Source: Syntrophorhabdaceae bacterium (GTDB taxonomy: Bacteria; Desulfobacterota; Syntrophorhabdia; Syntrophorhabdales; Syntrophorhabdaceae). From it: 64,000 bases of DNA. The notes below the pieces were generated by a model that made no database searches, had not been told where the DNA came from, and worked only from the letters and a program-made list of their open reading frames with translations. Position 1 is the stretch's first letter; each line of letters opens with the position of its first letter. Below, piece by piece: positions 21,257-24,781 of this stretch. The stretch is from positions 1 through 64,000 of the forward strand of contig CAXXUO010000001.1 in assembly GCA_963666485.2 (NCBI GenBank). Direction: 5' to 3'. Position numbers and translations under genes: made by a program.

Positions 21257-21489
21257 AATCGATACTGCTTCATTATCCTTTTTGAGCCTAAGAGTATAGC
21301 AGAAAAGCGCTGTAATTGAAAGCTCGCCCTCCTTTCCGGCCTACTTCTCCTCTTGCCCGGGACAGTGAAGCAAGCTTATAATTATAGTGCCTACCGGCTA
21401 CAGGTGACAGGAGGCCGGGCCGGGATAGTGCGGGGATACGGGAATTCTCGTGCATATGTTACGGGATCGACACAAGAAAGGAGGCGTTC

Positions 21490-22017
21490 ATGGATGACAG
21501 CAAGGAGCCGAAAGGCTGGAACCCTTATATCGCCGGGGCCCTGACCGGGCTTCTCCTCATCGCTTCCGTCTGGGTGGCGGGAAAATACTTCGGGGCATCG
21601 ACAACGTTCGTCAAGAGTGCGGGGCTCCTGGAGTCGACGTTCTCCGCAGAGCGGGTCACCCGGATGGAATATTTTATCAAGGAGCTCCCCAAGATCGACT
21701 GGCAATGGATGTTTGTCGTCGGCATATTCTTCGGGTCGCTCATCGCAGCGTTGACGTCGGGCACGTTTCGCTGGCAGATGCCTCCGGACATGTGGGAGCA
21801 GAGGTTCGGGCCGGGGAAGTTCAAGCGCGGTATCGTCGCGTTCATCGGCGGGGCGGTGGCCATGTTCGGCGCCCGCCTGGCAGACGGGTGACCGAGCGGT
21901 CACGGGCTGAGCGGTTCGCTCCAGCTGGCTGTTAGCGGTTATATATCACTCATCTGTTTCTTTGTCGGAGGTCTTATCGTCGCAAATCTGATCTATCGGG
22001 GAGGTAAGGCACAATGA
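21490..22017 (+). CDS. YeeE/YedE-family sulfur/selenium transporter subunit, probable selenoprotein (UGA at 21889-21891)
   Basis: Frame continues past TGA: GARLADG-U-PSGHGLSGSLQLAVSGYISLICFFVGGLIVANLIYRGGKAQ*. This matches the family motif GARxAxGCxSGHGxSG, and the extended stop overlaps the next ATG (ATGA). Confidence 0.88.
21906..21925 (+). promoter_or_regulatory. Putative bacterial SECIS hairpin
   Basis: GCTG-AGC-GGTTC-GCT-C-CAGC stem-loop, with apical G's 22-23 nt after the UGA. Confidence 0.7.
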
Positions 22018-22541
22018 CCGATCTCATCTATGGACTAATAACCGGCGCGATCTTCGGTTTCCTCCTCCAGAAGTCCCGGGTTATCCGCTATGATAAGCAG
22101 CTGGCGGCCTTGAGGCTCCTCGACATGACCATCGTAAAATACATGTTTACCACGATCCTCGTCGCAATGGTCGGGGTCTATCTCCTCAAGGACCTGGGGC
22201 TCGTGAAACTCTCCATAAAGGCGACATCGCTCGGGGGAAACATCCTGGGCGGGCTCATATTCGGCATAGGCTGGGCACTCTTCGGCTATTGCCCCGGCAC
22301 ATCGCTCGGGGCCCTCGGCGAAGGCCGGTACGATGCCGTCTGGGGGATAATCGGGATGCTCTGCGGGGCGGCCCTTTTTGCCGAGCTTTATCCCCTCATG
22401 AAGAAAACGGTCCTCACATGGGGCAACCTCGGCAAGATCACCCTGCCGCAGGTCCTCGGGATAAACCACTGGATAGTTATAGTGATAATGGTGATCATCG
22501 GGATCGGGATGTTTTGGTATTTTGAGAAGAAGGGCTTATAA
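22014..22541 (+). CDS. YeeE/YedE-family membrane protein (partner subunit)
   Basis: GAIFGFLL, GGLIFGIGWALFGYCPGT. Multiple TM helices. Confidence 0.92.
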   Translation: MTDLIYGLITGAIFGFLLQKSRVIRYDKQLAALRLLDMTIVKYMFTTILVAMVGVYLLKDLGLVKLSIKATSLGGNILGGLIFGIGWALFGYCPGTSLGALGEGRYDAVWGIIGMLCGAALFAELYPLMKKTVLTWGNLGKITLPQVLGINHWIVIVIMVIIGIGMFWYFEKKGL

Positions 22542-22727
22542 AAAGAATAGTTCAAGGTTCAAGGTTCAATGGAAAAGACAAAGATTTCGAAAAAGATCGG
22601 CATCAGGGCAGTTTCATTGAACTTTGAACTTTGAACTTTGAACCCCATTTTTTACCGGATAGTTATATTGATAATGGTGATAATCGGGATCGGGATGTTT
22701 TGGTATTTTGAGAAGAAGGGACTTTAG
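22471..22727 (+). repeat. 71-bp diverged direct repeat of the gene 3' end (22471-22541 and 22657-22727)
   Basis: Both copies encode IVI[V/L]IMVIIGIGMFWYFEKKGL*. Confidence 0.93.
22549..22644. repeat. Inverted heptamer arrays (RGTTCAA)3 ... (TTGAACY)4
   Basis: 22549-22569 and 22617-22644. Confidence 0.9.
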
Positions 22728-22731
22728 AAAC

Positions 22732-22804
22732 CGTAAAACGCAAGACGCAAGACGCAAGACGTAGAAAAAAGCGGCATTTTACGTTTCCCGTTTTCCGTTT
22801 TACG
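22732..22804. repeat. Second heptamer family, inverted arrays (CGCAAGA-type)5 ... (TTTTMCG-type)4
   Basis: CGTAAAA CGCAAGA x3 CGTAGAA, then TTTTACG TTTCCCG TTTTCCG TTTTACG. Confidence 0.85.
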
Positions 22805-22823
22805 ATTTTTTCCGGAGGAAAAA

Positions 22824-24248
22824 ATGGATCGTCTTGTCGTGATCGGGGGGGTGGCGGCGGGGATGAGCGCGGCGAGCAGTTTCAAGCGGCTCAGACCGGA
22901 AGCCGAGGCGATAGTGCTGGAGAAGGACCATTTCATTTCGTACGGGACCTGCAGCCTTCCCTACTATATCTCCGACGACATAAAGGATATCAACAGGCTC
23001 CTGTCACTTACCCCGGAGACGGCCGGGAAGGAGCGGGGCATTACCGTGCTCACGCGGCACGAGGCGGTATCGATCGACCCGGCGGCCAAAACGGTCTCTG
23101 CGATCAATCTCAACGCAAACGAGAAGAAGGTCATTCCCTACGACAAGCTTGTCATAGCAACGGGGGCGCTGCCTATCCGCCCGCCTTTCCCCGGGGTTGA
23201 CCTGGAACATGTTTTTACCCTGCGCAACCTCAATGACGGCCTCCAGATCAAGAGGTTCATCGATCACTGGCTGGCTTTCGAGCCATGCATCGGACCGAAT
23301 TGCGTGTACGAAAACCCGTACGGGATAGAGAAGAGGCCCATGCAGGCCTCTATCGTGGGGGGCGGATACATCGGAATGGAGGTATGCGAGGCCCTGAGAA
23401 AAAGGGGTGTCGAAGTGACCGTGTTCGAGAAGATGGACAGGGTCCTCGGCAACATGGACACCAGTATTACCGGCATCATCGAAGAATGCATAATCGCAGA
23501 GGGGGTAAGGCTCAACAAGGAATTTTCCGTAGAAGCCTTCGAGGCGGACAACGGCAGGGTTGCCCGGGTCGTAACGGACAAGGGTGTTTACCCGGCAGAT
23601 ATGGTCCTTCTCGTTATCGGGGCCCGTCCCAACACCTCCCTTGTGGTGGACCTCAAGATGGACCTGGGAGCCGGGGGGGCCATCAAGCTGGACGAGCATC
23701 TCCGGACCAGCATTCCCGATATATACGCCGCCGGTGACTGCGCGGAATCCACACATATCGTTACAGGGAAAAAGGTCTACATACCGCTCGGGACGACCGC
23801 GAACAAACAGGGCCGGATCGCCGGGGAGAATGCAGCGGGAATGACAAACATCTTTGAGGGCGTCGCCGGGACGGCAGTAACGAAGATCTTCAACCTCGAG
23901 GTCGCCCGGACGGGCCTTTCACCTCTCGAGGCATCCCGCGAGGGGCTCGACCATTTCGTGTCCACCATTCAAGGCTGGTCGCGCAGCAGCGCCTACCCGG
24001 AAGGAAAACGCATCACCGTGACATACATTGTCGAAAATGGATCGGGGCGCCTTCTCGGTGCGCAAATGGCCGGCGCCGAAGGCGTCGCCCACAGGATCGA
24101 CACGCTCGCCACCGCGCTGTACAGCAAGATGACCGTCTCCGATATCGCCCGCCTCGATCTCGGGTATGCCCCGCCATTCGCCACGGTGTGGGACCCTATT
24201 TTGGTGGCCGCAAATGTAGCAGTGAAAAGATTGCATAATAAAACATAA
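22824..24248 (+). CDS. CoA-disulfide reductase/NADH oxidase-family flavoprotein
   Basis: IGGVAAG, SYGTCSLPY (redox Cys), GGGYIGME, YAAGD, YAPPF. Confidence 0.92.
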   Translation: MDRLVVIGGVAAGMSAASSFKRLRPEAEAIVLEKDHFISYGTCSLPYYISDDIKDINRLLSLTPETAGKERGITVLTRHEAVSIDPAAKTVSAINLNANEKKVIPYDKLVIATGALPIRPPFPGVDLEHVFTLRNLNDGLQIKRFIDHWLAFEPCIGPNCVYENPYGIEKRPMQASIVGGGYIGMEVCEALRKRGVEVTVFEKMDRVLGNMDTSITGIIEECIIAEGVRLNKEFSVEAFEADNGRVARVVTDKGVYPADMVLLVIGARPNTSLVVDLKMDLGAGGAIKLDEHLRTSIPDIYAAGDCAESTHIVTGKKVYIPLGTTANKQGRIAGENAAGMTNIFEGVAGTAVTKIFNLEVARTGLSPLEASREGLDHFVSTIQGWSRSSAYPEGKRITVTYIVENGSGRLLGAQMAGAEGVAHRIDTLATALYSKMTVSDIARLDLGYAPPFATVWDPILVAANVAVKRLHNKT

Positions 24249-24298: not shown

Positions 24299-24781
24299 GT
24301 GCTCCACAACATCCTGTCAACCGTAGAAGAACGTGTCTCGATGATCGAAAGAACTCAATGGGGTGACGGCCTCAGCCGCGAGGAGATGCAGCAGTTCGCC
24401 CAGTATCTCTACGTGGCGACAGCACAGGCCGACGAGCCCATCTTCAATGAGGGTGCCCGCGAACCTTACATGTGCTTCGTTATACAGGGCCTCATCAGGA
24501 TAACGAAGGGCGATTCCCGGAAAAACGTCAAAACCATAGGCGATGTCGCGGCCGGCCGAAGCGTGGGTGAGATGAGCATTATTGACGGCCTCCCCCGTTC
24601 CGCGTCCGCGCGTGCGATCGAGGAGACCGTAGTACTCGTTTTGACCAAGGAAAATTTCGACCTGCTGCTCAAGGACAACCCGAAGCTCGGCGTGGTCCTC
24701 CTGAAAAAACTGGCCCAGCTCGTAAGTCATCGCCTCAGGGTATCGGACTGGATGCTGGCGGAATACATATACGAATCGTAA
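24299..24781 (+). CDS. Stand-alone cyclic nucleotide-binding domain protein
   Basis: IFNEG, VGEMSIIDGLPRSASARA. No HTH. Confidence 0.88.
   Translation: MLHNILSTVEERVSMIERTQWGDGLSREEMQQFAQYLYVATAQADEPIFNEGAREPYMCFVIQGLIRITKGDSRKNVKTIGDVAAGRSVGEMSIIDGLPRSASARAIEETVVLVLTKENFDLLLKDNPKLGVVLLKKLAQLVSHRLRVSDWMLAEYIYES

Follow-up and report, generated by a model that had tools for sequence, protein, structure and literature searches.

The question raised by this locus is whether an in-frame TGA ends a membrane transporter gene or encodes selenocysteine (Sec). The locus lies in a stretch of 64,000 nucleotides (nt) from a Syntrophorhabdaceae bacterium (contig CAXXUO010000001.1 of assembly GCA_963666485.2, positions 1 to 64,000), referred to here as the window, and all features described below are on its forward strand. 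An ATG at position 21490, placed 5 nt behind a Shine–Dalgarno-like AGGAGG read from the sequence (21479–21484), opens a frame of 133 codons that meets its first stop, a TGA, at 21889–21891. When this TGA is read as Sec, the frame extends through 41 further sense codons (PSGHGLSG...GGKAQ) to a second TGA at 22015–22017, giving a gene of 175 residues, gene 1 (21490–22017), with Sec at residue 134 of a G-U-P-S-G-H-G motif. The second TGA, assigned as the true stop, follows a GGAGG at 22000–22004 and shares bases with the ATG (22014–22016) of the next open reading frame (ORF), gene 2 (22014–22541), in an ATGA junction. These coordinates reproduce those of an earlier note on this DNA, which had proposed a hidden YeeE/YedE-family selenoprotein that standard annotation would miss. 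The evidence set out below indicates that gene 1 is almost certainly a real selenoprotein gene wrongly shortened by annotation, its TGA being read as Sec at a key Cys position. The fuller explanation, a Sec-decoded split YeeE/YedE transporter of the PmpA/PmpB or YedE1E2 type whose most likely role is sulfur uptake, is given a probability of roughly 0.86.

One competing view takes the TGA as a genuine stop, with the gene either decaying or encoding a naturally truncated protein of 133 residues, and with the downstream frame as a remnant. Gene callers do give exactly this product: the window's protein appears in the protein collection only as a 133-residue entry (P0008), as the earlier note had anticipated, and the product of one relative, from another source, forms a second entry of the same length (P0058). 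Read-through, for its part, is deduced from sequence. The 41-residue stretch cannot be a separate small gene because no in-frame ATG, GTG, or TTG was found 3′ of the TGA at 21889 in the sequence or its translation; no ORF of at least 40 residues is listed there either. What decides the matter is the behavior of the site and of the frame behind it in related genomes.

Among 41 genomes of the same genus, family, and order, 26 gave matches in 29 rows, and 26 of these rows contain exactly one internal TGA; the other three are two paralogues (40–42% identity) and a fragment beginning only past the site. Across a phylum-wide sample of 401 genomes, 90 were matched. Of the 65 top-ranking rows (E no higher than 1.5e-46, 48–99% identity), 39 carry TGA at the Cys codon, 25 have no stop (all 7 of these that were checked have TGC), and one contains a TAA. 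Four weaker rows flagged as containing one TGA have TGC at the site and their TGA elsewhere. The best 80 named loci from the genome collection are divided into 68 with TGA, 9 with TGC, and 3 with TGT. TGA is present in many metagenome-assembled genomes (MAGs) of Syntrophorhabdus and Syntrophorhabdaceae, with up to 87% identity, and in the isolate Syntrophorhabdus aromaticivorans UI (L147), but also in MAGs labelled Thermodesulfovibrionales, Nitrospirota, and Negativicutes; all Geobacter-labelled loci among the 80 carry Cys. The phylum and named-locus sets overlap in genomes, and they were therefore pooled and counted by distinct 54-nt sequences. The pooled 147 loci comprise 124 with TGA (100 distinct sequences, the Sec forms) and 23 with TGC or TGT (22 distinct, the Cys forms). 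In the protein collection, all 14 aligned full-length homologues show Cys at the site, although the alignment prints any U as C, and the identity of the residue rests on the DNA rather than on the alignment alone.

The frame behind the codon is equally well kept. The downstream peptide, PSGHG(L/I/M)SG...Q(L), and the helix that follows it are conserved across all 147 loci, and homologues stop within a few codons of 22015–22017. The 41 codons are maintained as protein down to 48% overall identity through 100 distinct sequences, which would not be expected of a dead remnant, and no further stops or frameshifts accumulate. The stretch also holds a fourth hydrophobic helix and part of the Pfam match described below, and the TGA always stands at the codon where other homologues have Cys. 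A genuine stop is therefore regarded as extremely improbable. Three TGC forms stand apart: the hairpin sequence of the Sec forms (see below) is retained in L099, from a Syntrophorhabdus MAG, and in L119, and L055 forms its own strong hairpin in the same place. These three may be recent conversions from Sec to Cys, or from Cys to Sec.

The same conservation bears on the suggestion that a TGC or TGT was turned into TGA by a mistake in sequencing or assembly. No point in favor of an error was found, and the presence of the same TGA at 124 loci from independent assemblies serves as an independent check on the base calls; an error can be given practically no weight. Reads from the sample itself add little to this. 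The stretch is present in three runs of one sample, in which only contigs and three raw reads align to it. A 4,163-nt contig from one run (X1) covers 21400–22526 without a single difference and so keeps the TGA that the earlier note had wished to see confirmed in reads, but X1 may be the source sample, and the agreement does not count as independent. In two wastewater metagenomes (X4 and X5), contig depth peaks over 21851–21932 at 5–10 times the depth of the flanks, and many short contigs from other organisms cover only the stretch that holds the TGA and the hairpin behind it. The peak is consistent with 21851–21932 being the part of the gene that is best conserved in DNA across organisms.

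Directly behind the UGA lies a hairpin of the type found in bacterial Sec insertion sequence (bSECIS) elements. It spans 21905–21926 and consists of 5 bp, a bulged C at 21921, and 4 bp, topped by an apical G-U-U loop (21914–21916) that is closed by G21913–C21917. The hairpin that the earlier note had described corresponds to 21906–21925, and its apical G residues (21913 and 21914) stand at +22 and +23 after the UGA, the G-G-U thus covering 22–24 nt. On its own, 21905–21926 folds at −10.3 kcal/mol into 9 pairs that leave a single C bulged and 3 nt in the loop. The published bSECIS model (PMC13188914, section 5) calls for an apical loop of 3–9 nt, an upper stem of 4–16 bp, a G in the first two loop positions that is usually followed by G or U, a distance of 16–37 nt between the UGA and the loop, and a minimum free energy (MFE) of −7.5 kcal/mol or lower. 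With its G-U-U loop, 4 + 5 bp, 22-nt spacing, and −10.3 kcal/mol, the hairpin agrees with this model on all four counts. No hairpin of this kind was found behind the second TGA at 22015, where a 52-nt fold has a z score of −0.08.

Comparison across relatives carries most of the weight here, because the fold of the single sequence is modest. In a gap-free alignment of 55 distinct TGA forms, 92.1% of cells in the stem are paired, as against 25–51% when the 3′ partners are slid by 1–3 columns. The pair 21906/21925 occurs as GC in 37 sequences, AU in 11, GU in 3, and UA in 1, and the pair 21907/21924 as CG in 38 and UA in 9, so that double changes are seen at two stem pairs in 12 and 9 sequences. 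The covarying changes are all synonymous, falling on the third base of a Gly codon, the first base of a Leu codon, and the third base of a Gln codon. Codons +7, +8, and +9 are frozen in the TGA forms (the first is AGC in all 55, the second GGT in 53 of the 55, and the third TCG in each of its 41 Ser codons), whereas four-fold and six-fold codons nearby are free to vary. Over the hairpin, codon entropy amounts to 0.80 bit in the Sec forms and 1.25 bit in the Cys forms, compared with 1.41–1.49 in the flanks; synonymous variation is suppressed over the hairpin in the Sec forms only. The loop codon is GGT in 91 of the 100 Sec forms and GGC in none, whereas GGC is found in 12 of the 22 Cys forms. 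By hairpin criteria of our own, which are stricter than those published, 92 of 100 Sec forms pass, compared with 6 of 22 Cys forms. Lineages with other peptides at this point (SGLAQL, SGSVQL, and I-S-G-S-L-Q) form differently built hairpins in the same place, one type having a 6-nt G-G-U-C-U-G loop and no bulge. A long lower stem including the UGA, which appears in the single-sequence fold, was also considered; it is only 73% paired over the 55 sequences, with several pairs mostly unpaired and poor covariation, and was dropped.

The machinery needed to decode a Sec codon is encoded in the source genome, which is 99% complete in 10 contigs. All components score over their cut-offs: selA (two genes, at 618 and 565 bits), selB-like (also two, at 402 and 338 bits), tRNA-Sec (73.7 bits), and selD (372 bits), the selD itself containing one in-frame TGA. 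The selA, selB-like, and selD genes lie at C3:20129–24445, C4:168611–170485, C1:229833–231191, and C2:512556–513467, with one selB and one selA near each other on contig C3. The presence of selA does not serve to tell Sec carriers from Cys carriers, as 371 of the 401 phylum genomes have it and it is too common. Where checked, the sequence-level expectations attached to the original proposal were thus borne out: the Cys/TGA column in homologues (100 against 22 distinct sequences) with its conserved downstream peptide, the hairpin at the predicted spacing and covarying in relatives, the retention of both TGA and hairpin among those relatives, and a genome that holds selA, selB, tRNA-Sec, and selD.

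Read-through could still occur without Sec, with a near-cognate tRNA for Cys or Trp, or a suppressor, decoding the UGA and the hairpin doing no more than slowing termination. The inserted residue is deduced from sequence, and Cys would be acceptable at this position, being present in many relatives. Set against this, the genome and its relatives retain the full and costly Sec machinery, the hairpin has the spacing and the apical G-G/U of bSECIS elements with a loop codon that is fixed only in TGA forms, and TGA otherwise acts as a stop in this organism, for instance at 22015. Read-through of this kind is considered very unlikely, and decoding as Sec is preferred.

A number of results count against decoding as Sec, or at least temper the evidence for it. 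As a single sequence the hairpin is only modestly unusual (z −2.17, with 5 of 200 shuffles folding as well). The MFE of the region from +10 to +45 does not separate 51 Sec forms from 11 Cys forms (−11.0 versus −10.2 kcal/mol, p = 0.16), and this comparison was replaced by the position-specific hairpin criteria and codon statistics given above. Six Cys forms pass those criteria, namely L099, L119, L055 (−16.4 kcal/mol), L057, L133, and L140, the last three with a different sequence. An Rfam scan of 21400–22900 with E up to 10 returned eight weak matches, none of them on the hairpin; they fall on a palindromic repeat (see below) or elsewhere. The relatives compared are not independent of one another, and the shuffle controls accordingly overstate significance. 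One genome with a TGA form, G153, gave no selA match despite being 98% complete, but since it contains tRNA-Sec and a selD with a TGA, the missing match is probably due to an assembly gap. Finally, selenium insertion itself is argued from sequence comparison.

Gene 1 belongs to the YeeE/YedE membrane transporter family, as the earlier note had recognized. Its read-through product matches Pfam PF04143 (Sulf_transp) with 87.9 bits (cut-off 27) over residues 8–162, a match that spans the TGA and covers profile positions 175–309 of 310; the protein has one Sec, in a G-U-P-S-G motif at residues 133–137. Gene 2 encodes 175 residues and scores 61 bits against the same profile (cut-off 27) over positions 18–153. 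Because the two proteins cover complementary halves of PF04143, genes 1 and 2 are assigned as the C-terminal-half type (PmpA-like) and the N-terminal-half type (PmpB-like) of YeeE/YedE subunit, in that order. A crude hydropathy scan finds four hydrophobic stretches in gene 1, the fourth of which (143–170) lies past the TGA, and five in gene 2. Gene 2 follows directly 3′ of gene 1 at all 47 loci examined, and the partner half almost never carries TGA, which was seen in only two rows of the 401-genome sample. These two N-terminal halves (G221:C4:58616–59092, with two TGA codons, and G362:C85:29311–29826, a 46% paralogue with one) could themselves contain Sec or could be pseudogenes.

Alignment to the YeeE protein of Spirochaeta thermophila (6LEO and 8J4C) places gene 1 on residues 227–330 and gene 2 on residues 4–179. 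Sec134 falls on Cys293, and Cys93 of gene 2 (TGC at 22290–22292) falls on Cys91. According to PMC7449682 (Tanaka et al. 2020), Cys293 sits in a periplasmic indentation and contacts bound thiosulfate, and the C91A and C293A variants are inactive, whereas C22A still complements. The idea that Sec lies in the substrate path is thus supported by alignment, which would place Sec134 at an essential, thiosulfate-contacting residue.

From these positions a working model can be proposed. The hairpin at 21905–21926 would recruit SelB with Sec-tRNA(Sec), and the UGA at 21889 would be decoded as Sec, after which translation would run on to the stop at 22015. With the ATGA overlap at that stop, synthesis of gene 2 is probably coupled to successful read-through. 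The two halves may pair as a pseudo-symmetric dimer resembling single-chain YeeE. By homology, Sec134 would then occupy a periplasm-facing outer capture site and Cys93 of the partner a central one, suggesting a relay from Sec to Cys, in which substrate would be captured at the outer mouth by the selenolate, the stronger nucleophile. The most likely job of the pair is uptake of reduced or sulfane sulfur, either polysulfide/S0 or thiosulfate, an assignment by analogy that is tentative and falls somewhat short of even odds. Sulfur is favored because YedE1E2 imports zero-valent sulfur and YeeE imports thiosulfate; for YedE1E2, import by way of two essential Cys residues and formation of glutathione persulfide are described in PMC10812762.

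The gene that follows the pair in the window could be connected with such a role. It encodes a flavoprotein of 474 residues (22824–24248) resembling coenzyme A (CoA)-disulfide reductase (CoADR), NADH oxidase, and CoA-persulfide reductase, which contains the Pfam domains Pyr_redox_2 and Pyr_redox_dim and a Cys in the motif Y-G-T-C-S-L-P. Its relatives in the PDB are of the same three kinds, and it scores 425.8 bits against the NCBIfam CoA-disulfide reductase model, under the cut-off of 578.8. A CoADR-like gene lies 3′ of the transporter pair at 22 of the 47 loci, all from the same order, and at none of the 18 loci of other orders within flanks of 1.5 kb. The flavoprotein is a probable functional partner of the pair; within the order of the Syntrophorhabdaceae, imported sulfur may be passed to a low-molecular-weight thiol and reduced by this enzyme. 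A CoA-stimulated NAD(P)H polysulfide/thiosulfate reductase of Thermotoga is reported to be induced together with a yeeE gene (PMC9431562).

An alternative that accepts the same recoding is that the pair is a selenium-specific importer or carrier, similar to YedE/FdhT, which feeds selenoprotein synthesis. YedE-like proteins have been tied to selenium metabolism by comparative genomics and in Methanococcus (PMC9312934 and PMC11582611), and both genes give weak NCBIfam matches to the YedE/FdhT models of selenium metabolism (NF033796 and TIGR04112): 30.2 bits for gene 1, and 36.1 and 26.2 bits for gene 2. The first two of these scores are, however, far under cut-offs of 350 and 200, and the third is likewise below 350. 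The window flanks of the pair hold uvrA and the CoADR-like gene, and selenium genes such as selD or yedF were found neither next to the pair there nor among 56 flanking ORFs at 24 other loci. The neighbor within the order is a CoADR/persulfide-reductase-like enzyme, and the split relatives that have been studied transport zero-valent sulfur. A selenium importer is accordingly judged unlikely, and sulfur uptake is retained as the working assignment.

The functional part of this reading has its own difficulties. Against the TsuA models, gene 1 scores 48 bits where 400 is required (NF041049) and 32 where 645 is required (NF052577), and gene 2 scores 54 and 35.6 bits, respectively, each gene covering only half of the model. 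As these values and those for YedE/FdhT are far below the cut-offs, the pair was assigned to neither equivalog. The position of Cys22 of S. thermophila YeeE is Ile24 in gene 2. Neighboring genes vary outside the order, and a Pfam search of the 56 flanking ORFs at the 24 other loci gave no recurrent partner. No TusA/YeeD-like gene adjoins the pair; the only PF01206 matches in the genome, at C3:382962–383150 and C1:596829–597026, are far from the window.

More speculative is the chemistry at the entry site, which may be covalent or may rely on hydrogen bonds. In the covalent version, which is regarded as doubtful, the selenolate would attack polysulfide/S0 (or thiosulfate) to give a covalent Se–S intermediate, which would be handed to Cys93 and on to a cytoplasmic thiol. 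If this were true, the whole YeeE/YedE family would be a covalent chalcogen relay rather than a passive channel. The Sec transporter and the CoADR-like reductase would together form a selenium-dependent module for uptake and reduction of sulfane sulfur in Syntrophorhabdus-like anaerobes, and through the ATGA overlap the partner subunit would depend for its synthesis on successful Sec insertion.

Several further features were noted around the pair. The 3′ end of gene 2 is followed by a 109-nt palindromic element (22545–22653), the arms of which are built of GTTCAAGG / TTGAACTT units. It is flanked by two 77-nt copies of the gene 2 3′ end that are 91% identical (22468–22544 and 22654–22730), and 92 matches to its family occur genome-wide, a tandem 14-nt array at C1:407390–407585 among them. 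The element looks like a dispersed repeat of the repetitive extragenic palindromic or miniature inverted-repeat transposable element kind (REP/MITE-like), inserted at the end of gene 2 and carrying or duplicating its last codons. Just 5′ of the CoADR-like gene, a 30-nt inverted repeat (22728–22808), 77% complementary with 21 nt between its arms and built from CGCAAGA-like units, could be the terminator of the transporter pair or an operator. On the 3′ side of the CoADR-like gene, positions 24299–24781 encode a 160-residue protein whose sole domain is of the cyclic-nucleotide-binding type (PF00027, 62 bits). At one other locus, L027, a homologue of this protein lies right behind the transporter pair, and the reductase gene there is a 50-residue remnant.

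The result has both practical and mechanistic consequences. The other TGA loci, in a set that numbers 124 in all among the loci examined, will be shortened by automatic annotation in the same way, and transporter inventories of the Syntrophorhabdaceae and many other anaerobes are wrong at this point. Sec and Cys have been swapped repeatedly at the substrate-contacting, outer-mouth residue of YeeE, whereas the central Cys of the partner has almost never been replaced, a pattern that points to nucleophilic chemistry at the entry site. The natural Sec/Cys pairs could be used to test how transporters of the YeeE family move sulfur.

Whatever the value of these points, the selenoprotein family itself has already been catalogued, and the novelty implied by the earlier note was overstated. 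YeeE/YedE (PF04143, motif GUxSG) is catalogued as a selenoprotein by Zhang et al. 2026 (PMC13188914) and is listed as a selenoprotein family by Zhang et al. 2022 (PMC9312934); the supplement of Peng et al. 2016 (PMC5029168) counts 5 YeeE/YedE selenoproteins in 5 organisms. The terms YeeE, YedE, COG2391, and DUF395 are absent from the main texts of PMC2398784 and PMC5029168. In a plasmid collection, only homologues with less than 40% identity turned up. A search of the literature on Sec in YeeE, YedE, or PmpA yielded only the two reviews and papers of comparative genomics; experimental work did not come up, nor did any mapping of Sec to Cys293 or a connection with PmpA. Gene 1 shares with the catalogued family its Pfam family, single Sec, and motif (G-U-P-S-G in gene 1). 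The catalogues come without SECIS analysis, structure mapping, or operon context, and subunit type could be compared with them by motif only. The published count of 5 organisms is far too low when set beside the 124 TGA loci found here.

The hairpin resembles the consensus bSECIS element in being a stem-loop directly behind the UGA and within the coding region, with a loop of 3 nt, or of 5 nt if the closing G–C is counted as N1–N2; it differs in that no curated RNA family covers it. Compared with YeeE/TsuA of S. thermophila and E. coli (6LEO, 6LEP, and 8J4C), the pair belongs to the same fold family and has counterparts of both essential pore Cys residues. TsuA is a single chain of ~330–350 residues, whereas here there are two chains of 175 residues with the gene for the C-terminal half first. 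The outer Cys of TsuA is Sec here and its third Cys (Cys22) is Ile; in addition, the pair has no adjoining YeeD/TsuB (TusA-like) gene and scores under the TsuA cut-offs. YedE/FdhT shares with the pair its superfamily and a link to selenium biology, but its members are thought to carry selenium as cargo and not to be selenoproteins themselves, and the scores of 30.2 and 36.1 bits given above lie well below their cut-offs.

The closest parallels are PmpA/PmpB of Serratia and YedE1/YedE2 of Cupriavidus pinatubonensis, in which two half genes likewise lie side by side, each encoding a single conserved chalcogen residue. In PMC11582611 (Li et al. 2024), PmpA is the C-terminal half with the Cys293 cysteine and PmpB the N-terminal half with that of Cys91, and the two are proposed to form a heterodimer; the word selenocysteine is absent from that paper. 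Compared by description only, these proteins have ~130 residues, four helices, and Cys in both halves. Both halves in the window have 175 residues, gene 2 has five hydrophobic stretches, and one Cys is replaced by Sec. What is added here to the known systems is the scale of the phenomenon (124 loci as against 5 organisms), a covarying SECIS element, the structural position of Sec, the near-absence of TGA from the partner gene, and the CoADR-like neighbor.

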